64,000 nucleotides of DNA from Bacteriovoracaceae bacterium UBA4573 (GTDB taxonomy: Bacteria; Bdellovibrionota; UBA1018; UBA923), in assembly GCA_002387735.1 (NCBI GenBank), contig DGKJ01000029.1, positions 5,015 to 69,014 on the forward strand. The letters are read 5' to 3'. The notes below the pieces were generated by a model. It saw only the letters and a list, made by a program, of their open reading frames with translations, searched no databases and was not told where the DNA came from. Below, in pieces: positions 14-29,139 of the stretch; position 1 is the first letter of the stretch, and each line of letters begins with the position of its first letter. The translations under genes were made by a program, and so were the position numbers.

Positions 14-1930
14 CTAGGCCGCAAAGGACTTCTTTTGAAACTGAACATTCGGAGGAACTGCACCGAAAACGATGGTCACGTCATCGGCAAGGTTTGCCGC
101 GTTCGGTCCGAAAAACGCCATCGTGTCGGCCATGAAGTCTTCACAAATAGCCGGAGCATTCGACGCGTGACGCTCATGCAGACTTTTGACCATTTTCACG
201 AGGGAGTTTCGACTGATGGTTTTACCTTCCGGATTGGTGCATTCCAGCACACCATCGGTATACCAAAGAATGACATCACCCGGCTCCAAGGCAACGGTAG
301 CCGGCTCTACTTGAATATTTAGGTCGTGCCCGAGTGGGTTGCAACGAGCGTCCATCAAAGGCTTAATTTTTTCTTGGCGGTAAATATAGGGTGGTCGGTG
401 GGATGCGTTTACAAACTCCATTTCACCACTGTCGAGATCAACCAAACTCGCGACAAAAGTCATGGTCGCTTCTTGTTTAGCTGCTGCAAAAACCACTGCA
501 TTGAGTGTTTCGATTACTTCCTTAATAGAGACCTTGGCCTGATCGCGCATGAACTTTTGAATGAGCATCGTGAAGCCGCCGTGCACAGCTGCCGTCACGA
601 GCGCGGAAGACACGCCGTGCCCGGTCACGTCACCGATTACGACTAGGAGTCGGTTTCCTATTGGAGCATAGAACCACCAGTCACCACCGCACTCACTAGC
701 GGGCACAACGCGACCGGCAAGCGTAAGGTTCATGTGTTCAAAGTGCTGCACTGGAAAAAATCGACTTTGCACCACTTGCGCGGTTTCAAGTTCCTTCTCC
801 ATTCGTGCTTTTTCGGCAGTCTGAGCCATGAGCTCATGAATCTTGTCCGCCATAGTATTAAACGACTGCCCTAGACTATTGATTTCGTCAGCAGTGTTAC
901 TCTCGGTTTGCACGCGCACCGAGAAATCCCCTTCCGACACCTGGCGCGTAGCATTCCACAACTCACGAATTCTTCGAGTGAGCCCTTTAACGAACAACAT
1001 CGCAAGACCGATCGACACCAATAAAATGCTGACGCCAAGAGCAAACGATCTTTGTACGAGAGCATGAGCCGCCGCAAACGCAGTGGCTTTAGGTATTGAC
1101 GCGACGACCGTGAATTTGCTCTTCCCTAGGCGTTCATAACTTAGAATGTAATCGTTTTTCTTAGGCCCGACCCATTCGCGGACGCCAGAAGGAAAAGTAG
1201 AAGCAAGTAGTTCTTTTACAATGGACGTCATAGCTTTTTCACTGAGCTCACCACTAGCTCCAAGCGCCTGATCAGAACCCGAAGAAGTCAATCTCTTGCC
1301 TGCACTGTCGTATAAAAAGATACTGGTATCCTTGCTGCCCACGCCCTTGAGCAGAGCCGCGTCTGGTTTAGCAACAGCCAGTAGGTAAACTCCTGCTCCC
1401 GTTAAATCAACTCCGTGGGACGCGATTAGCAGTTTACCATCTGGGTTCGTACCCAAAAGCATTTCAGTTTCGTTAAACTGTGAAGGAGTCCAACCCATGG
1501 CCACTAAATAACCTTCGAGCACGGTCTGTTCTTGGCCAAATGCCGCGTAGGACACAAAGGCCGAATCCTGAGCACGAAAAAACAACGCACTTTCTACGCC
1601 GATAGATTTATCAAATCGTTGAAACAATGTTTCACCGAACTCTCGATCATACTGCCCGTCGCTCCGCAGAAATGCGCCCATCATCCGGGTGTTTGAAACA
1701 ATTTTTGAAATCCAAGAATCGAAACTCTGAGTAGAAATACGAGACTGAGAGAGATTGTAGTCGTAAATGTAAGACACTTTATCACCAATAATCAGAGTCG
1801 TACCAATATAAAGGTAGGAACACAGACTCACCGTCAGCGTAAGTGTAACGAGAAGAATGATTTTAGCTCTAATCGAGAGCGACCAGAAGCGTCTCACGCT
1901 ACCTTTATCGTCGAAATTAATGAGAAACAT
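14..1930 (-). CDS. Membrane sensor serine phosphatase (RsbU-like): N-terminal TM, ~250-aa extracytoplasmic domain, second TM, HAMP domain, then a PP2C/SpoIIE phosphatase domain
   Basis: HAMP-like stretch LTRRIRELWNATRQVSEGDFSVRV...NSLGQSFNTMADKIHEL. PP2C/SpoIIE motifs GGDWWFY...VIGDVTGHGVSSALV...DGVLE. Two hydrophobic segments (res ~20-45 and ~290-310). ATG start confirmed on minus strand. Confidence 0.8.
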   Translation of the reverse strand: MFLINFDDKGSVRRFWSLSIRAKIILLVTLTLTVSLCSYLYIGTTLIIGDKVSYIYDYNLSQSRISTQSFDSWISKIVSNTRMMGAFLRSDGQYDREFGETLFQRFDKSIGVESALFFRAQDSAFVSYAAFGQEQTVLEGYLVAMGWTPSQFNETEMLLGTNPDGKLLIASHGVDLTGAGVYLLAVAKPDAALLKGVGSKDTSIFLYDSAGKRLTSSGSDQALGASGELSEKAMTSIVKELLASTFPSGVREWVGPKKNDYILSYERLGKSKFTVVASIPKATAFAAAHALVQRSFALGVSILLVSIGLAMLFVKGLTRRIRELWNATRQVSEGDFSVRVQTESNTADEINSLGQSFNTMADKIHELMAQTAEKARMEKELETAQVVQSRFFPVQHFEHMNLTLAGRVVPASECGGDWWFYAPIGNRLLVVIGDVTGHGVSSALVTAAVHGGFTMLIQKFMRDQAKVSIKEVIETLNAVVFAAAKQEATMTFVASLVDLDSGEMEFVNASHRPPYIYRQEKIKPLMDARCNPLGHDLNIQVEPATVALEPGDVILWYTDGVLECTNPEGKTISRNSLVKMVKSLHERHASNAPAICEDFMADTMAFFGPNAANLADDVTIVFGAVPPNVQFQKKSFAA

Positions 1931-1959
1931 GAGATTTCCGATAAGGTTCGTGAGGGATT

Positions 1960-3510
1960 ATGAACTCAGAACCTACCTCAAATGCCGAATCTGCAGCCAA
2001 ACCCCGGGTAGCTGTGGAAAAAAGTGCCGGCACTGATACGAATTTAACGTTGTACGCTAATCGCGAATCCAAAAAACGCGAACGGGCGGCCACCGCTTTT
2101 TGGCTTTTTTGCATTAGCCTAGGACTTTTTGGCCTACTAATCGTAAATACCTCGTCGCTCTGGAATCGAATTATCGGAACTTCTTACGCCCCCGAAGCGA
2201 TCGGAAAAATTTTCCTGCAAAAAACCGACGTCCGATACCGCCCGTCAGGCTCGATAGTCTGGATGGATCTTACCAAAAATTCTCAGGACGTAGGCAATGG
2301 AGACACCGTATTTACCGCTGCAACCGGTTCCGCAGAAATCAAATTTAACCGCGGCAATAGCGCACAGATCATGCCCAACTCCCTAGTGGTGATTCAAGAA
2401 TCCGACCGCGAAGCGGCATCGGGCAAAGGCGTACGGGGTTGGTTCGACAACAAACTTGCCTCGCGAGCGGCGGTCAACATTCTGGAAGGAACCGTAAAGT
2501 TAGGTTTCGCGGGCGATGCCAACCCAATTGATCTTAAGATCATGGGTAAGGACTACCGAGTAAGTGCTGCAGGCAGCGGAAGTAGCGTGAATATTTCCGT
2601 TGACCCGACGAATTCCAAAAAACAAGTCTCGATTACCGGCGATGGAAAAATTCAACTGGAAGCCGACGGTAAAAAGTCTTTGATTGATCCTGGAAAAATT
2701 GCCGCCGTGGGCGAAAATAAAAAGATCGAAATTGAGGAAGAAGTTTTTAAGCAGTCACTGCCAAGAAACAACGCTCGCCTAGTCATTGGAGAATCGACTC
2801 AAATAGGAGACGGTCGAGGCAATTTGCCTTTCGAGTGGTCTCGCCGAAAAACAGAAGTTGGTACCATAGAAATTGATGGCGCCGAACACCTACAAGTGCC
2901 CATACAAGCTGAAGACACCAAAACGAAAGTTCCGCTGCGGTCTGGCGATTACCGTTGGCGTTTAATTTCACGTTCACAGAAAAGCGGCAGCCCGTGGTTC
3001 GACTTCAGTGCGTTAGTGGTTGATCGACCTTCGATACGCTACCCAGCCCCTCAGACCGCTTTTCGAATTCCACACACTGAAGACGAAAAAGAAATACAAC
3101 TGGTATTCTCGCATCCAAATCCAGATTTTGAAGTGGAAACTCAGCTTTATGCGGTTGGTAAGTCTGGAGAACTCGTACTCAAACGCGAAGACTCTTTGCA
3201 GCCGGGAGCTCGTACAGGGCAACAAGAAGTTCTAGAGCTCGAACTAGAAGTCGGTCAGTACCAGTTGCGAGCACGCTCCGTTTACACTACCAAGGGCCAA
3301 AACCGCAAAGTTTACAGCCCTTGGACGCAACCAACGACATTCGCTATCATACGAGAGCCCGCGCCTACGCCGGTGCCCACTCCACGTCCAACTCCAATAG
3401 CGCGTAAACCCGCGAGTGAGGACATGAACTCTGATTCCCACTTAAAAAAACCTGCCATTCGCCCGCGGAATGGGAGTACAATTGACGAGCCGTTGATTAT
3501 TTATCCATAA
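1960..3510 (+). CDS. Membrane-anchored hypothetical protein, possible FecR-like domain, Pro-rich C-terminus
   Basis: N-terminal TM (AFWLFCISLGLFGLLIV). Segment GDTVFTAATGSAEIKFNRGNSAQIMPNSLVVIQ resembles FecR beta-rich fold. C-terminal PAPTPVPTPRPTP linker. Confidence 0.5.
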   Translation: MNSEPTSNAESAAKPRVAVEKSAGTDTNLTLYANRESKKRERAATAFWLFCISLGLFGLLIVNTSSLWNRIIGTSYAPEAIGKIFLQKTDVRYRPSGSIVWMDLTKNSQDVGNGDTVFTAATGSAEIKFNRGNSAQIMPNSLVVIQESDREAASGKGVRGWFDNKLASRAAVNILEGTVKLGFAGDANPIDLKIMGKDYRVSAAGSGSSVNISVDPTNSKKQVSITGDGKIQLEADGKKSLIDPGKIAAVGENKKIEIEEEVFKQSLPRNNARLVIGESTQIGDGRGNLPFEWSRRKTEVGTIEIDGAEHLQVPIQAEDTKTKVPLRSGDYRWRLISRSQKSGSPWFDFSALVVDRPSIRYPAPQTAFRIPHTEDEKEIQLVFSHPNPDFEVETQLYAVGKSGELVLKREDSLQPGARTGQQEVLELELEVGQYQLRARSVYTTKGQNRKVYSPWTQPTTFAIIREPAPTPVPTPRPTPIARKPASEDMNSDSHLKKPAIRPRNGSTIDEPLIIYP

Positions 3511-22818: not shown

Positions 22819-23256
22819 ATGAAAAGTCGCTTAAGAATCCTGATTTATCCCCGTTTTCAGTTGTTACTACTGGGAATTAACTTTCTAGTATTCGCAATCG
22901 TTAGCGGCGTCATGTTTTGGCAACACCAACGCACTCAGGGCGCTATTCGGCAGCTTGGACTAGACGCGAATCTTTCTCCCTCGCACGGGTTCTTTCAATT
23001 AGTCGAACTGCAGTCACAGCAATATCTAGCAAGTCTTACGGCCGTTATGCTTTTTGGCTTCATTTTTTCGGCTTTGGTGATGCTCGTGGTCTCAAATCGT
23101 CTCGCGGGACCAATCGTGCGTTTGCGTCGCTACTTCGGCGACATTGCGATCAAAACCGACAACGTACCACCTTTGTCTTTTCGAAAAGGCGACTTCTTTG
23201 GCGACCTACCCGAAGTCGTTAATCGGGCCGTGCAGGCGCTGCAGACCAAAAAATAA
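22819..23256 (+). CDS. Small membrane protein with HAMP-like linker
   Basis: Two TM segments (LLLLGINFLVFAIVSGVMFW; AVMLFGFIFSALVMLVV) followed by amphipathic LAGPIVRLRRYFGDIA...GDLPEVVNRAVQAL. Confidence 0.4.
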   Translation: MKSRLRILIYPRFQLLLLGINFLVFAIVSGVMFWQHQRTQGAIRQLGLDANLSPSHGFFQLVELQSQQYLASLTAVMLFGFIFSALVMLVVSNRLAGPIVRLRRYFGDIAIKTDNVPPLSFRKGDFFGDLPEVVNRAVQALQTKK

Positions 23257-23262
23257 AGCCAC

Positions 23263-26200
23263 TTATTGCGGCTGGCATGGACTAACTTGCACCGGAAACC
23301 CAGTGCCTGGATATTTTCCTGTAGTGTTATGTATGCACACTTCGTCTATCACTCCATCGAAATAGGCACTGCTCGAAGCGTCCCGCCCTAAATACAGCGG
23401 CAGATCCGGGTTATTAATCGTGGCTCTATGACCACTGTCGTTAATAAAGCTACCGTTTGCGACTCTAGAACCATTTAAAAAACCCCGCACTTGCGCGGCG
23501 TTCGAGTGGTCGGTATCAAGTCGGTAGACGATATGATAAAAAGTGTTTGTGCTAATTGTTACTGGTGCGGTCACTATTTCATCGTAAGTATTTCCACCGT
23601 CGACACTCGCCCGGAAAACCAGGACGATCTTGTTGTCGCCCGTGCGCCGACGCAGGTAGATCTGCCAACCATAACTGCCCGCCGTGCTGCCGCCCTTTGA
23701 AGCAAGAGCCATTTGTCTGCCCTTTGCTGGCAATTTACGTACCGACACATACATCTCGAATATCATTCTCTCTCGCAACGAATCGTAACGCGCTTCGTTC
23801 GGTATCGAAAGGTAGTGCCGAAATCCCGGCGTAAGCGAGCGTCCTTCAGCGAACCTTCCCGTTGCGTTGCCAGTGCCGAAGCTCTGAATTGTAATCCCAG
23901 AGCCGATCTGAGCGTAATAACTGCTGTCGGCAAACGAGCCGGTGGCGTTGTCAAAGTGATAAAGTGCGATTGTTTCGAATGTGTCGGTTATGTTCCAACT
24001 AAACCCTTGGGGCAGACTCGGATTACCGACCGCATCTAAAGCTCTGATCTCTAAAGTATGTGCCCCGACGCCCAACCCTTGAACTACATGGGGCGAGGTG
24101 CAGGTGGCGTAGTCCCCTCCATCGAGTCGACACTCGAAGTGGTGTACGTCGCCGCTTCCCGATCCCCAGAAATAGGCCGTTGCTTCGCGCGAAGGAGTTG
24201 ATCCAGTCGGTCCCGCGCCGAGAAAAAAGGTAGGTGGTGTCGTGTCACGAATCCAGGTGGCGGGCACGGAACTAGAATTATAACCATTTTCGGGCTTGTG
24301 AGCGTAAACACCAATTTCGTAGTTTCCGTCGGCCGCAAAATGCAGAGGAATTTCAAATATTCCATCGTTGCACGGAATGGCCAATTCCGCAGCTGCGAAA
24401 CCACCGCTCACTAATCCCAGTGTACGCATTTCGGTCCCTATTTGGCAGGTTCCTCTTACGTTCATGGTGTCGGACTGCGTGAGAAACCAAGCCTGAGGCG
24501 GCCACTGAATCATTGGCGCACTCGGGCCGGCAGTGTCTCGAACCCAGCGAAACGTAACCTCGTTGGACGGGTTGCCCACGTCGTCGGTAGCCGAAAAAGT
24601 ATAACTGTAGGTACCGTCGTTGGACTGATGCAAATAGACTTCGAAGGTGCCCGAAGAACAAGTAATGAGCATCTCCCCCACGCTTGGCTCAAAGCCCCGT
24701 ACGACTCTGGCATCGCCGCAGGTACCTTCCACCGTGATGGCGGTTGGGGAATAAAAGGGTTGAGCCATGGGCGAAACGATTGCGACAGTCGGCGGAGTCG
24801 TATCGAGTACCCAGTCAAAACGCGTAGGACTCGACTCTACAAGAGTGTAGGCCTGCATTTGCTTGAAATACACCGAGTGAGCCCCTTCAGCGCTTTCATG
24901 AAGTTCAAAATAAGCGCTCCCGCTTGAATCACATATTTTTTGAATTGGAGTCTCAACAGAGAGCCCTTCGACTTGGACCGTGTTGCCGGGCGAACAAAAA
25001 ACTCTGACCGTAAAATCTACCGCTCGCGTCGCAAACGGCTGTTCATTCGGGGCTGCAATCGTTACAGGACTAGGAACGCTCGGATCGGTGTAAAACCGGA
25101 ATTCTCGCTGCACCGAAGGGTTTCCAGCGCGGTCCACCTGGGTAAAATAGAACGTTCGGAATTGACTCATTTGGCCCACAGCTTCGTAAGTAGCTTGGCC
25201 ATCGGCTCCGCAGGCCAAGTTCGTCACAACGAGGTTCGGGTCATCGATCGCAACATCGATTCGCGCCAGCGGTTCACAGCCCAGCAGCAGATCGTGCGTC
25301 TGTTCAACCGATGCCAACTCACTCGGACTAAAGGCCACTGCATTCGGCGCAATTGGGTCGAAAGCTATTGTGGTCTCAACATCGGCCGACGGAGCTCCGC
25401 CTGGTCCGAATTGGCGAGCCCGCGCTAGTACTACGCGTTCGCTGGTCACCGAAGGCGGTATGTCCAACGTGGCGTATCCTACGCCGTTTGTTTGGCATAA
25501 AAACGGAATTTTTCCGAACTCGGTTTCTACTTCTCCCGAAGCATTTGGCTGACAGCTCAGTTCGAACTCTACGTTGCGTAAACGAGTGTTCAACGGATTT
25601 ACATTCGGGCGTACAATCGTCGGTGATACCGGCACCGACGAATCGCGCCGCCACACTAGTTGCGAAGAAGCGCTGGGGTTTCCGGCCCAATCGGTCTGGG
25701 AAAAAGCAAAAGTGTACGACCCATCGCTTTCACCTAGCACTCGAAACGTGAACGATTCGTTTTGACACAATACCGATTCTCGACGCCCGTCGGTGTGTTC
25801 TAGAAAAACAGTTGCCCCGGGTTCGCACGAACCGAGAATTGTTAATTCATTTTGATACGAAACATGGGTTGGCGATGCGGGGCTTGTCACTCTAGGCGGC
25901 GCCGGGGCCCTGCGATCCAAGGTCCAGTTAAAAATAACGGCTTGAGAGCTTACTCCCGAACGATCGTCGTGAAAAAACGAAAATAAGTAAGTACCATCGT
26001 CACTTTTGGTAGCTGGATAGCTAAACTCACCGGAACCCGTACAGGTTAGCTCTTGAGCCTCTGCGCCCCCGTCGCTCACAAGCAAAGCATATCGCGCGTC
26101 GCACTCGCCCGTAATCACTACATGATCGCTATTCGACTGAAGAGGGTTCAACACGGGCGACACTATTCGCGGAGAAGGAATGATCGGAATGGGAGCCGGC

Positions 26201-26376
26201 GTAATTATCGGTGCCGAACCAGTGGTAGAACTACTACCGCCGCCACCACCAGAGCCGCCGCCCGAACCACCGCCCGAAGCCCCACCGCCACCAGATGATA
26301 AACAACCGGAAGCCATCAAAGCTCCGAACAATACTATGGCCGCTCGACAGCTAAAAAACAGTCGCACGTTCCTCAA
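23263..26376 (-). CDS. Giant surface lipoprotein: Gly/Ser linker, ~8 tandem Cys-pair Ig-like repeats, C-terminal LamG/concanavalin-like jellyroll domain
   Basis: Signal peptide plus ...LMASGC lipobox-like. (GGGS)n linker. Repeats of ~100 aa each carrying C...C and ending D..GNPS (e.g. ILGSCEPGA...VLCQNESFTF...FSQTDWAGNPS). C-terminal ~230 aa with LamG-like pattern (YHIVYRLD...GFLNGSRV...LYLGRDASSSAYFDGVIDEV). Confidence 0.7.
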   Translation of the reverse strand: MRNVRLFFSCRAAIVLFGALMASGCLSSGGGGASGGGSGGGSGGGGGSSSTTGSAPIITPAPIPIIPSPRIVSPVLNPLQSNSDHVVITGECDARYALLVSDGGAEAQELTCTGSGEFSYPATKSDDGTYLFSFFHDDRSGVSSQAVIFNWTLDRRAPAPPRVTSPASPTHVSYQNELTILGSCEPGATVFLEHTDGRRESVLCQNESFTFRVLGESDGSYTFAFSQTDWAGNPSASSQLVWRRDSSVPVSPTIVRPNVNPLNTRLRNVEFELSCQPNASGEVETEFGKIPFLCQTNGVGYATLDIPPSVTSERVVLARARQFGPGGAPSADVETTIAFDPIAPNAVAFSPSELASVEQTHDLLLGCEPLARIDVAIDDPNLVVTNLACGADGQATYEAVGQMSQFRTFYFTQVDRAGNPSVQREFRFYTDPSVPSPVTIAAPNEQPFATRAVDFTVRVFCSPGNTVQVEGLSVETPIQKICDSSGSAYFELHESAEGAHSVYFKQMQAYTLVESSPTRFDWVLDTTPPTVAIVSPMAQPFYSPTAITVEGTCGDARVVRGFEPSVGEMLITCSSGTFEVYLHQSNDGTYSYTFSATDDVGNPSNEVTFRWVRDTAGPSAPMIQWPPQAWFLTQSDTMNVRGTCQIGTEMRTLGLVSGGFAAAELAIPCNDGIFEIPLHFAADGNYEIGVYAHKPENGYNSSSVPATWIRDTTPPTFFLGAGPTGSTPSREATAYFWGSGSGDVHHFECRLDGGDYATCTSPHVVQGLGVGAHTLEIRALDAVGNPSLPQGFSWNITDTFETIALYHFDNATGSFADSSYYAQIGSGITIQSFGTGNATGRFAEGRSLTPGFRHYLSIPNEARYDSLRERMIFEMYVSVRKLPAKGRQMALASKGGSTAGSYGWQIYLRRRTGDNKIVLVFRASVDGGNTYDEIVTAPVTISTNTFYHIVYRLDTDHSNAAQVRGFLNGSRVANGSFINDSGHRATINNPDLPLYLGRDASSSAYFDGVIDEVCIHNTTGKYPGTGFPVQVSPCQPQ

Positions 26377-26523
26377 TGGAAGGTCCCCCTAGACCAATCC
26401 ATTTTGCTATACCGTATCTATTTAATCAACAATTAATATACTGAAATTTATCTAATAATTACAGGGCATTACACGAGCTTAATCTGGTAAAACAGCCGCC
26501 CAGGGTGCGACTCCCCCGGGTGT

Positions 26524-29139
26524 TTAGCCGTGCAGGGTGTCTGTGAGGAGCGCCAGCAATTCGTCGCGTGAAAACGCTTTTAGGCCCACGGGTGACTCTT
26601 CGATCAGCACGCCGCTGAGAGTCTTTTTACTCTGAATGATTTCGGCGATGCGGTCTTCGATTGTTTCAGGGCACTGGAGTTTAAAAACCTGCACGCCGCG
26701 GGTTTGGCCAATGCGGTGCAAACGGTCAGTTGCTTGGTTCTCTTTCGCGGGGTTCCACCAACGATCAAAGTGAATGCACACACTGCCGGCCGTGAGATCG
26801 ATACCCAAGCCCCCAGCGAGCAAGCTACAGAGAAACACCTTACATTCAGGGTCGTCTTGAAACCGCATGATGCGTTCACCGCGATCACGGGTGTCACCAC
26901 GAAGTTCGGTAAACTGGATTCCCTGTTTTTTTAGCCAAATACCAATGACATCGATCATGCCGAGATACTGGGTAAATACGACGACTTTGAGATTCGAGCG
27001 CAGCGCTTCTTCAAGAAGCTCCACGAACACTTCCCACTTGCCAGTTTCCTCAGGGTCAATCTTGGTGGCCTTCTTAATTTTTCCAGTAGTGTAAGCCGGC
27101 AGTCGCGGGTGATCACAAACTTGTTTTAGCCGGGTGAGCATTGAAAGAACGCCCGCGTAGTCAATTTTTTCACCAGCCTCGATATCGGCCCTTAGTTTTG
27201 CAGCTTCGCTACTATTGAGAAACGCACGGTATTGCTTCTTCTGAATCGAAGTCATCTCGCAACGAACCACTTCTTCAGTTTTTTCAGGCAACTCCGTTAA
27301 CACCTGAGACTTTGTTCGCCGCAACAGAAACGGCGAAACAAGTCGCTTAAGTGTGGTCGCTTGTTCTTTGGTCGGAATCTCACGGCCATATCCGTAAAGA
27401 CGCTTAAAACGCGGCAGTGAACCCAAATAACCCGGGAGCAAAAACTCCATGATCGACCAAAGGTCGGAAGCCTGATTCTCTACCGGCGTACCGGTCATCG
27501 CCAATCGAAACTTGCACTTCAGAACACGCGAAGCGCGCGCGCTAATGGTGGTCGCATTTTTAATGGCCTGAGCTTCATCGAGGATTACCACGTGCCAGGG
27601 GCGCTCGCGCAGTGCAGACTCTTTTTGTAAAATTCCGTAGGTCGTTAGTACTAGTTTAGTGTCTTTACATGGCATTACTCGACCCTTGCCATGAAACACG
27701 CTCCACTTGAGCCCCGTTTTATAACGTTCGAGTTTGTGGCTCCAAGACGCTACGACCGACGTAGGAGCAATCACCAAACTCGGGTGTTCTGGGCTGTCTT
27801 TGCCTTCGTACATACTCGAAAGAAAAGCCATTACTTGGTGGGTTTTACCAAGCCCCATGTCGTCGGCCAAAAGCGCGGCGAGTCCCCGATGCGACAAACT
27901 CCACAACCAACTCAGACCATTTTTTTGATATTCGCGCAGATCGAATCCGTATTCCACGTTTGGCAATTCTGGAATGTCTTTGCGTTCAAAGTTCTTACGC
28001 CACTCGTGAAACTCTTTCCAATCTGCATCGACCGAAAAATCTTCAACTCCGACCTCGAGACTCAATCGATAGGCCGCTAGCGGGTGCAGTGGTTGTTGGT
28101 TGTTGTCTTCGAGATCAATAAACCCCGTAGGAGTCTTTACCCGCGGCGACGACTCTGGGCCCGCCACACCGCTGCGATTAGCCAAGCGTGCAAGCTGAGC
28201 GAGCGACGTTGAGAGTCGAAAAATTTTATTACCGATCCAAACGAAGTTGGTAGAGAGGCGCCCGATTTCCGAAAGTTTCGCCATTTCATCGCTGGTGATT
28301 CGAGCTTCGTCGTTAGCAAATTCGTAGGACACCGAGCGGGCCTTGTCGGATTTTTTGCCAATATGCATGCCCACTAATCGAAGTGGTTTAGATGCCAAAG
28401 TTACGCCCGCTAGATCGTTATGAAAAACGATAGCTGCCTTCTCTGCGTGCATCATTAAAAGCGCGAGCTGTTCGAGCGCTGCTTGGCCCTGATAAATAAT
28501 CTTCGCCGCATCTAGCGACTTTAAAACTGGCACATATTCGTGAGCGGGTTGGTATAGTTTGCCGTCGGGGGCCTTCCACACTTTGCCGCCGCCCTGAAAT
28601 AGCAGTTGCGAGAGCGGAAACACCACTTCACTTTTCTTTATTTGAGGCGAGCTCTTGCTTCCCACGACGTGTTCAACGTCGGAACTACGATAACGAAAGC
28701 CTGCCTCTACGGCCAAAGAATGCAGGCGTTTTCCGGCAAAGGTAGGCCGCACAAATGCCACAGGCTCAGCCGTTAAAACTTCGGGTTCACCCTCTTCTTC
28801 GGGTACTACGAAAGACTCGGCTACGCCGTCGTCCTCATCGCCAATTCCGGCGCGCAGCAAACTGCCTCGCTCGATCACCCAAATACTAAGGGCCGCTATG
28901 TGCCGGCAATGAGCCTCTCCCACGTGGTGGGTCGGGCACTGGCAGCTCGACTTAGCAATCGTGCCGCGGGCCATAATGATTTCAATTTTAAATTGTGAGG
29001 TATCGGGCTCTTCGACACGCGCAACTACTGCATCGCCACGCAGTCGAACCTCTTTTACTCGATCCTCTCGATAAAAGATCTGGCCCGTTTTCCAGCTCGT
29101 CAGTGAGAACTCGCGTTTAATTTGATTCAAAAACAACAT
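26524..29139 (-). CDS. SNF2-family helicase with N-terminal SWIM zinc finger
   Basis: SWIM CQCPTHHVGEAHCRHI. Walker A/motif I LLADDMGLGKT. Motif II DEAQAIKN. C-terminal helicase motifs (TGTPVEN, HRIGQT). Confidence 0.85.
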   Translation of the reverse strand: MLFLNQIKREFSLTSWKTGQIFYREDRVKEVRLRGDAVVARVEEPDTSQFKIEIIMARGTIAKSSCQCPTHHVGEAHCRHIAALSIWVIERGSLLRAGIGDEDDGVAESFVVPEEEGEPEVLTAEPVAFVRPTFAGKRLHSLAVEAGFRYRSSDVEHVVGSKSSPQIKKSEVVFPLSQLLFQGGGKVWKAPDGKLYQPAHEYVPVLKSLDAAKIIYQGQAALEQLALLMMHAEKAAIVFHNDLAGVTLASKPLRLVGMHIGKKSDKARSVSYEFANDEARITSDEMAKLSEIGRLSTNFVWIGNKIFRLSTSLAQLARLANRSGVAGPESSPRVKTPTGFIDLEDNNQQPLHPLAAYRLSLEVGVEDFSVDADWKEFHEWRKNFERKDIPELPNVEYGFDLREYQKNGLSWLWSLSHRGLAALLADDMGLGKTHQVMAFLSSMYEGKDSPEHPSLVIAPTSVVASWSHKLERYKTGLKWSVFHGKGRVMPCKDTKLVLTTYGILQKESALRERPWHVVILDEAQAIKNATTISARASRVLKCKFRLAMTGTPVENQASDLWSIMEFLLPGYLGSLPRFKRLYGYGREIPTKEQATTLKRLVSPFLLRRTKSQVLTELPEKTEEVVRCEMTSIQKKQYRAFLNSSEAAKLRADIEAGEKIDYAGVLSMLTRLKQVCDHPRLPAYTTGKIKKATKIDPEETGKWEVFVELLEEALRSNLKVVVFTQYLGMIDVIGIWLKKQGIQFTELRGDTRDRGERIMRFQDDPECKVFLCSLLAGGLGIDLTAGSVCIHFDRWWNPAKENQATDRLHRIGQTRGVQVFKLQCPETIEDRIAEIIQSKKTLSGVLIEESPVGLKAFSRDELLALLTDTLHG

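Follow-up and report, generated by a model that had tools for sequence, protein, structure and literature searches.

Here we analyse a gene in a 64,000-nucleotide (nt) stretch of Bacteriovoracaceae bacterium UBA4573 (contig DGKJ01000029.1, positions 5,015 to 69,014; the whole stretch is hereafter called the window) that encodes a protein of 1037 amino acids (aa). We propose that the product is an exported, N-terminally lipid-anchored, adhesin-like envelope protein consisting of a stalk and a binding head, and put the probability of this reading at about 0.6. The protein would be exported through the Sec pathway, lipidated at Cys25 and sorted to the outer membrane, where a tether of ~40 Gly, Ser and Pro residues would join the membrane anchor to a rod of seven tandem immunoglobulin (Ig)-like domains of the Big_13/Big_6 type, each with one intradomain disulfide. 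The rod would be capped by an OmpL47-type beta domain and by a distal LamG, or concanavalin A (ConA)-like, jellyroll serving as the ligand-binding module, and at the surface the whole would function in adhesion or receptor binding. Proteins that carry a lectin-like head on a stalk of Ig repeats are well known, and on present evidence this is a conventional envelope protein. The family to which it belongs is, however, previously undescribed, and its members carry generic names in public databases.

A stalk of seven divergent Ig-like repeats

The gene is a single unbroken open reading frame (ORF) of 1037 codons on the minus strand (23263..26376), with a TTG start codon at 26374-26376. Most of the product consists of seven homologous modules of ~92 aa, listed here with the score at which a hidden Markov model (HMM) built from the other six repeats detects each one.

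25900..26175, minus strand: repeat R1, aa 68-159, Cys92/Cys112; leave-one-out HMM 52.5 bits
25627..25899, minus strand: repeat R2, aa 160-250, Cys184/Cys204, motif DWAGNPS; leave-one-out HMM 49.6 bits
25351..25626, minus strand: repeat R3, aa 251-342, Cys275/Cys294, the most divergent; leave-one-out HMM 17.8 bits (shuffle maximum 4.8)
25069..25350, minus strand: repeat R4, aa 343-436, Cys367/Cys389, motif DRAGNPS; leave-one-out HMM 29.0 bits
24793..25068, minus strand: repeat R5, aa 437-528, Cys461/Cys482; leave-one-out HMM 41.0 bits, within the two-repeat AlphaFold2 model
24520..24792, minus strand: repeat R6, aa 529-619, Cys553/Cys573, motif DDVGNPS; leave-one-out HMM 53.1 bits, AlphaFold2 model and fold matches
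24205..24519, minus strand: repeat R7 and a short connector, aa 620-724, Cys644/Cys669, with an insertion; leave-one-out HMM 31.9 bits

The cysteine pairs of these seven modules recur with a period of 91-94 aa, and two further pairs are found at 749/759 and 1014/1034. The leave-one-out scores of 18-53 bits compare with at most 9 bits for 200 shuffles of each repeat; at the level of the amino-acid sequence, the periodicity is far beyond chance. Self-BLASTP of the protein returned no internal matches because the repeats, with pairwise identities of 12-32% in a Cys-anchored alignment, are too divergent for this search to detect. The array is ancient, since the gene contains no DNA-level repeat of module length (~276 nt). 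These results bear out an earlier first-pass annotation, made from the sequence alone, which had described an old array of repeats that are divergent at the DNA level; the periodicity it expected from self-comparison is present in the cysteine spacing and in the leave-one-out HMMs, even though self-BLASTP is blank. Its count of about eight Cys-pair Ig-like repeats is in part amended: seven are indeed homologous, but the eighth is a domain of the OmpL47 type. Likewise, the D..GNPS motif that it placed at the end of every module is exact in four of the eight (aa 229, 415, 598 and 781) but degenerate in the other four.

Among Pfam families, Big_13 (PF19077) matches the repeats with 48.3 bits against a cut-off of 27 and Big_6 (PF17936) with 43.9 bits against 27.6, while the NCBIfam model Ca_tandemer (NF033510) scores 48.4 bits, below its cut-off of 50; the best-scoring stretches of all three fall in R2. 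Scans against Pfam and NCBIfam revealed no C-terminal region of the repeats-in-toxin (RTX) or type I secretion system (T1SS) kind in the protein. An AlphaFold2 model of R5-R6, for which tandem repeat pairs of relatives served as the input alignment, is all-beta, with a mean predicted local distance difference test score (pLDDT) of 95.6 and a predicted template modelling (TM) score (pTM) of 0.80, the latter of which may reflect a defined inter-domain geometry. In Foldseek, this model matches the Bap C-region (E 2e-8) and SiiE (TM up to 0.70), as well as intimin D00-D0, a large-adhesin extender and tandems of fibronectin type III domains. Each Ig-like domain probably contains one disulfide, because the two-cysteine pattern is family-wide, which is strong comparative evidence: exactly two cysteines are present in 305 of the 317 repeats detected across the family, at a median period of 90 aa.

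An OmpL47-type domain and a LamG head

The C-terminal part of the protein comprises two further domains.

23983..24204, minus strand: OmpL47-type small beta domain, aa 725-798 (FECRLDGGDYATCTSP), Cys749/Cys759, motif DAVGNPS; NCBIfam NF047446
23266..23982, minus strand: C-terminal LamG/ConA-like jellyroll, aa 799-1037, with a tail containing Cys1014/Cys1034; Pfam Laminin_G_3

The first of these, the eighth Cys-pair module, matches NF047446 with 56.1 bits (cut-off 40), and its cysteines are 10 residues apart, as against ~20 in the repeats. It is modelled as all-beta, and a domain of this type precedes the LamG domain in most members of the family. In the second, Laminin_G_3 (PF13385; cut-off 27.6) is recognised with 50.2 bits over aa 873-1018. 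An AlphaFold2 model of aa 720-1037 has a pLDDT of 86.4, and in Foldseek searches of the PDB and BFVD its matches to ConA-like jellyrolls have a probability of 1.0. The jellyroll matches have E values of 1e-6 to 1e-10 and are to carbohydrate- or receptor-binding modules; in the PDB they include the GH43 arabinanase AbnA (E 8e-10), a cyanophage tailspike, PAPP-A2, the N-subdomain of tetanus and botulinum toxin Hc, and sialidase CBM40. Many phage LamG tail and baseplate proteins are also matched by the model, and a profile of the family compared with PDB sequences retrieved pappalysin, AbnA and an S-layer-domain protein. The LamG-like jellyroll that had been read at the C terminus is thus recovered by profile, model and fold search. 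The expectation of Big and Laminin_G_3 domains agrees with the three Pfam families found above their cut-offs, and that of structured repeats and a structured C-terminal domain with the confident all-beta model of the stalk and the jellyroll model of the head.

ConA-like jellyrolls bind glycans, proteins or lipids, a range too wide for the fold to indicate the ligand class of the head. One possibility is that the protein serves in polysaccharide binding or nutrient capture, the LamG domain being a carbohydrate-binding module that would hold glycans from the environment or from prey at the envelope, to be degraded by separate enzymes, and the AbnA accessory domain, CBM40 modules and glycosidases are indeed among the best PDB fold and profile matches. 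However, similarity in the ConA-like fold does not predict the ligand, the protein contains no catalytic domain in Pfam and NCBIfam scans, and no glycoside hydrolase or transporter genes lie near the family gene in the window or at the loci L006 and L008. We consider such a role improbable.

The start codon and the predicted lipoprotein signal

The proposed membrane anchor depends on where translation begins.

26384..26389, minus strand: Shine-Dalgarno-like GGGGGA, 7 nt 5' of the TTG, read from the sequence
26305..26376, minus strand: signal peptide, aa 1-24 (MRNVRLFFSCRAAIVLFGALMASG); depends on the TTG start, relatives carry a lipobox signal
26302..26304, minus strand: lipobox Cys25, predicted lipidation site, from the A-S-G-C pattern
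26176..26301, minus strand: flexible linker, aa 26-67, in which the Pro-rich APIITPAPIPIIPSP comes after a (GGGS)n-like tract, read from the sequence

From the TTG, the N-terminus comprises a basic n-region, a hydrophobic core and an A-S-G-C lipobox, and continues as CLSS. Its Ala at -3 differs from the L/V/I of the canonical [LVI][ASTVI][GAS]C. The +2 residue, next to Cys25, is Leu and not Asp, which by the E. coli rule would favour sorting to the outer membrane; this rule may not hold in this phylum. Directly after Cys25 follows a Gly/Ser tract, SSGGGGASGGGSGGGSGGGGGSSSTTGS (about aa 27-54), within which TRF detects a 12-nt tandem DNA repeat in three copies (26243-26278). It should be noted that a PDB sequence search with the whole protein gives matches only in the tether (aa 26-57, 26206-26301), to the Gly/Ser linkers of engineered single-chain variable fragments and fusion proteins; these matches are low-complexity artefacts, harmless in themselves, yet they could mislead automated annotation.

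In the public contig ERZ761592 NODE_3 (ENA; 729 kb), which is identical to the window across the gene, the gene model (L002 12824-15877) starts instead at Met21 and yields a product of 1017 aa from which the signal peptide and the lipobox context are lost. An exact protein look-up returned no match for either the 1037-aa or the 1017-aa product. If the public call were right, the protein would be translated from Met21 without a signal peptide and would not be a lipoprotein, and the ATG of Met21 does have a GGAG of its own, 5 nt upstream. Such a product would, however, leave nine cysteine pairs and extracytoplasmic Ig and LamG domains in the cytoplasm, where they make little sense, and would take no account of the Gly/Ser tether that begins right after a cysteine. 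Moreover, relatives show clear signal peptides, with a lipobox directly before a Gly/Ser-rich tract. A lipobox-like [LVIMAFT][ASTVIGLMF][GAS]C occurs at residues 11-60 in 26 of 44 relatives with the same architecture, most of the others being truncated at the N-terminus, and the lipoboxes include LSAC, LTAC and LASC but also ASGC, ATGC and TSGC. In P0001, the relative closest to the protein over its full length, GGGSGGGGSGGGG comes after VVSC; P0028 has LSAC followed by SSGGGGGS and P0044 has LTAC followed by GGGGGGGG. On these grounds we prefer the TTG start and hold translation from Met21 to be very improbable; the start of the deposited gene model was probably mis-called, which hides the signal peptide (window 26314-26376). 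The ORF is exactly as the first-pass annotation gave it, and its lipobox-type signal and (GGGS)n spacer hold if the TTG start is used.

A family with a constant C-terminal cassette and a variable stalk

Word-indexed searches are nearly blind to the relatives of this protein. The full-length sequence retrieved 10 matches, of which only P0001 has the same architecture (25% identity over 82% of the query); the C-terminal domain retrieved only a fragment of the protein itself, and the family profile retrieved six LamG proteins, all unrelated. The family was revealed by an exhaustive HMMER scan with aa 797-1037, which found 379 proteins at E<1e-3, of which 56 have E<1e-10; at least 44 cluster representatives of the same architecture are among the best 150 matches. 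Members are built from a lipobox signal (in sequences with an intact N-terminus), 2-19 two-Cys Ig repeats, an OmpL47-type region of ~80 aa and a C-terminal LamG domain, and the protein analysed here, if translated from the TTG, has all four elements. As judged from these sequences, the family is defined by a constant C-terminal cassette and a variable stalk length.

The second-best full-length match is annotated as AgmC (Cystobacter fuscus; E 6e-29, 71% of the query). This raises the question of whether the protein is a substratum adhesin for gliding motility, coupled to the gliding machinery like the myxobacterial Ig-repeat protein AgmC, and not a factor of prey recognition. Bdellovibrio-like organisms do glide. 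Nevertheless, the match is only 24% identical and most likely runs through generic Ig repeats, as Big_13 and Big_6 occur in both proteins, and Laminin_G_3 is not among the Pfam families listed for the AgmC-annotated match. Furthermore, no gliding genes flank the family gene in the window or at L006 or L008. A role in gliding has, in our view, little chance of being correct.

We also searched contigs of one genome per species from GTDB with a single peptide pattern, a scan that is not a census. Alignment A1 of the cassettes was too diverse for pattern design and a closer six-sequence alignment was used instead. The full cassette was matched in three metagenome-assembled genomes (MAGs), one of Pseudobdellovibrio, one of Bdellovibrio and one labelled 'Proteobacteria bacterium'; the sequence of the protein itself gave no match in the genome scan. 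Named members of the protein clusters include 'hypothetical protein [Bdellovibrionales bacterium]', 'LamG-like jellyroll fold domain-containing protein [Bdellovibrionota bacterium]', 'large repetitive protein [Pseudobdellovibrio sp.]' and 'LamG domain-containing protein [bacterium]'. Every named member with a taxon label belongs to Bdellovibrionota, although this again is not a census, and the protein cluster of the neighbouring helicase has a member labelled 'Oligoflexia bacterium' (NCBI), i.e., of the same phylum. Both labels are consistent with the predatory lineage guessed at in the first-pass annotation. Among publications on LamG, concanavalin, lipoprotein, Ig-like and adhesin proteins of Bdellovibrio, we found no paper on this family. 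A domain definition based on the Ig repeats, the OmpL47-type domain and the LamG domain with its terminal Asp could replace such names as 'hypothetical' and 'large repetitive protein'.

Departures from the family

On alignment A1, the protein is a divergent member of its family. Its C-terminal cassette is 23-31% identical to the other cassettes and deviates at positions where at least 80-97% of members agree. The Gly-rich LamG loop, GTIGTAGS in the family, reads SFINDSGHR (aa 977-985; 23422-23448, minus strand), which may reflect either altered specificity or relaxed constraint. The conserved Arg of the DEVR strand is replaced by Cys1014, and the aromatic residue of the tail (Tyr/Phe) by Cys1034. 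All 44 relatives of the same architecture, as well as 24 other LamG matches, end in Asp, whereas this protein ends in Gln1037. Within this C-terminal region (aa ~1013-1037; 23266-23340, minus strand), the tail K-Y-P-G-T-G-F-P-V-Q-V-S-P-C-Q-P-Q keeps the family length and departs from the family pattern R-[WY]-x3-F-x-x-P-x3-[YF]-x-[AP]-D-COOH. Because this length is preserved, we speculate that a disulfide between Cys1014 and Cys1034 may replace the interaction of the Arg, the aromatic residue and the terminal carboxylate.

Location and function

The spacing of tandem Ig domains is typically ~3.5-4.5 nm per domain. By this estimate, eight beta domains and a ~40-residue tether would give a reach of ~30-40 nm, and relatives with 19 repeats would reach far more. 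Because the estimated reach exceeds the width of the periplasm, the most likely location would be the cell surface.

A number of observations weigh against an adhesin-like protein at the surface. The lipoproteins of Gram-negative bacteria are mostly oriented towards the periplasm, and neither Pfam, NCBIfam nor the gene neighbourhood revealed a signal for export to the surface. Surface exposure and a ligand would have no characterised homologue in their support. The lipobox has Ala at -3, the signal peptide needs the TTG start, and the public start at Met21 has its own GGAG. In the head, no binding site is definable, the conserved LamG residues being mainly expected fold-core positions, and the deviations of the protein in the Gly-rich loop and tail mean that its function may differ or be relaxed. 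Finally, there is neither a conserved neighbourhood across the window, L006 and L008 nor an operonic partner. The ORF, the order of its domains, the modelled folds, the family with its variable stalk and the lack of operonic partners are shown. Lipidation, the disulfides, a location in the outer membrane or at the surface, the binding function and the nature of the ligand are what we infer, and so is the attachment to prey, host or substrate suggested in the first-pass annotation.

A rival reading is a lipoprotein that faces the periplasm. Either the inner leaflet of the outer membrane or the inner membrane would hold its anchor, the Ig array would be a periplasmic spacer or scaffold, and peptidoglycan or another polymer of the envelope would be bound by the LamG domain. 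This orientation is the established default for proteobacterial-type lipoproteins, no surface-export signal or partner gene was found, and disulfides suit the periplasm just as well. On the other hand, seven Ig domains, an OmpL47-type domain and a LamG domain are by our estimate already beyond typical periplasmic width, relatives with up to 19 repeats are hard to fit into it, and the stalk has its structural neighbours among adhesins that act outside the cell. We regard a periplasmic orientation as unlikely and favour an adhesin-like protein at the cell surface.

A more specific proposal is that the family represents prey-recognition adhesins specific to Bdellovibrionota that work as a 'molecular ruler', in which the LamG head is constant, the number of repeats sets the reach and the terminal Asp is functional. 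The head would then recognise a glycan or protein of the prey envelope, and the 2-19 Ig repeats would set the reach through the capsule, O-antigen or S-layer of the prey. The invariant terminal Asp would form part of a site that binds a metal or a ligand, or of a new sorting signal, with the protein analysed here having exchanged this Asp and gained Cys1014-Cys1034. As a whole, this proposal is speculative and unlikely to hold. If the broader reading as an adhesin is true, members with naturally different stalk lengths could serve to examine how attachment depends on reach.

Transcription unit and genomic context

23257..23273, minus strand: terminator-like hairpin followed by a T-run, overlapping the stop codon of the gene (23263-23265)

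A second terminator-like hairpin (26499-26520) lies 3' of the upstream helicase gene. The two hairpins flank the gene on both sides, which suggests that it is transcribed alone, as a monocistronic unit. A 145-aa ORF on the plus strand (22819-23256), also called in the public contig, converges on the stop codon with a gap of 6 nt, and the hairpin at this junction may terminate both genes. By eye, the 145-aa ORF contains two hydrophobic segments and a HAMP-like stretch; it has no match in Pfam or PADLOC. Three plus-strand ORFs of 130-160 aa (24442-24927, 24940-25428 and 25353-25751) lie wholly within the gene and are almost certainly spurious, since the gene itself is backed by homology and structure.

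Neighbouring genes in the window encode, among others, an SNF2/SWIM helicase, the convergent 145-aa ORF, a class-I methyltransferase, an amidohydrolase, an H+-PPase and a Tsp protease; no paralogue of the gene was found within the window, and Rfam detected no RNA family there. The upstream helicase (26524-29139, minus strand; 871 aa) is of the SNF2 type, with an N-terminal SWIM-type Cys/His motif recognised by eye only. PADLOC matches it to the DpdE and ZorD models (E ~1e-110) and gives no match for the Ig-repeat protein. We rejected a defence island as an explanation, as the DpdE and ZorD matches run through the generic SNF2 core and no other defence components were seen nearby. Elsewhere, the family gene of Pseudobdellovibrio is flanked by fmt, rpe and histidine-utilisation genes, and that of the 'Proteobacteria bacterium' MAG (L008) adjoins genes for a racemase, a pentapeptide-repeat protein and a hybrid kinase. 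Next to its family gene, L008 also carries a 264-aa ORF (1745-2539, plus strand) with a sub-threshold, matrixin-like match to Peptidase_M10 (22.4 bits against a cut-off of 24) that is not seen at the other loci.

Comparison with known systems

SiiE of Salmonella, Bap of Staphylococcus and Acinetobacter, and Ca tandemers of the RTX/LapA type resemble the protein in having a tandem stalk of ~90-aa Ig-like domains that projects a binding region. These adhesins are either T1SS-secreted or sortase-anchored, and Ca2+ at the domain junctions makes many of them rigid. Unlike them, the protein has a predicted N-terminal lipoprotein signal, one cysteine pair per domain and no RTX/T1SS C-terminus. Another large Ig-repeat protein of the envelope is myxobacterial AgmC, linked to the protein by the 24% identity of the one AgmC-annotated match. 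OmpL47 of Leptospira shares the small beta domain NF047446 with its signature F-x-C-x-L-D-G...C-x-S-P...D-x-x-G-N. Orthology to OmpL47 was rejected: the protein reaches 21.8 bits with the equivalog model NF047441, which has a cut-off of 250, and its architecture as a whole is different.

The head shares its fold and Pfam family with AbnA, CBM40, neurotoxin Hc, pappalysin and phage LamG proteins, and like many receptor-binding proteins it is distal in a larger protein. Its identity to known LamG modules is 9-21%, with no shared ligand-binding residues established. Unlike these modules, the LamG subfamily has a conserved tail of its own with a terminal Asp, a feature absent from the protein analysed here.

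Within the phylum, two kinds of prey-recognition adhesin have been described in Bdellovibrio: MAT fibres, which are chimeric trimeric adhesins with TNF-like, C-type-lectin or tailspike-like tips (PMC10769870), and Bd0875, of the MIDAS family (PMC11003981). No sequence relationship was detected between the present family and either of them, and the MAT-fibre paper (PMC10769870) makes no mention of LamG, Ig-like or lipoprotein features. If our reading as an adhesin is true, the family would join the MAT fibres and the MIDAS adhesins as a third architectural class among the candidate attachment factors of predatory and related Bdellovibrionota. MAT fibres share with it the logic of a stalk and a binding tip; however, whereas in MAT fibres the tip varies between paralogues, in the family described here the length of the stalk varies and the head is constant.

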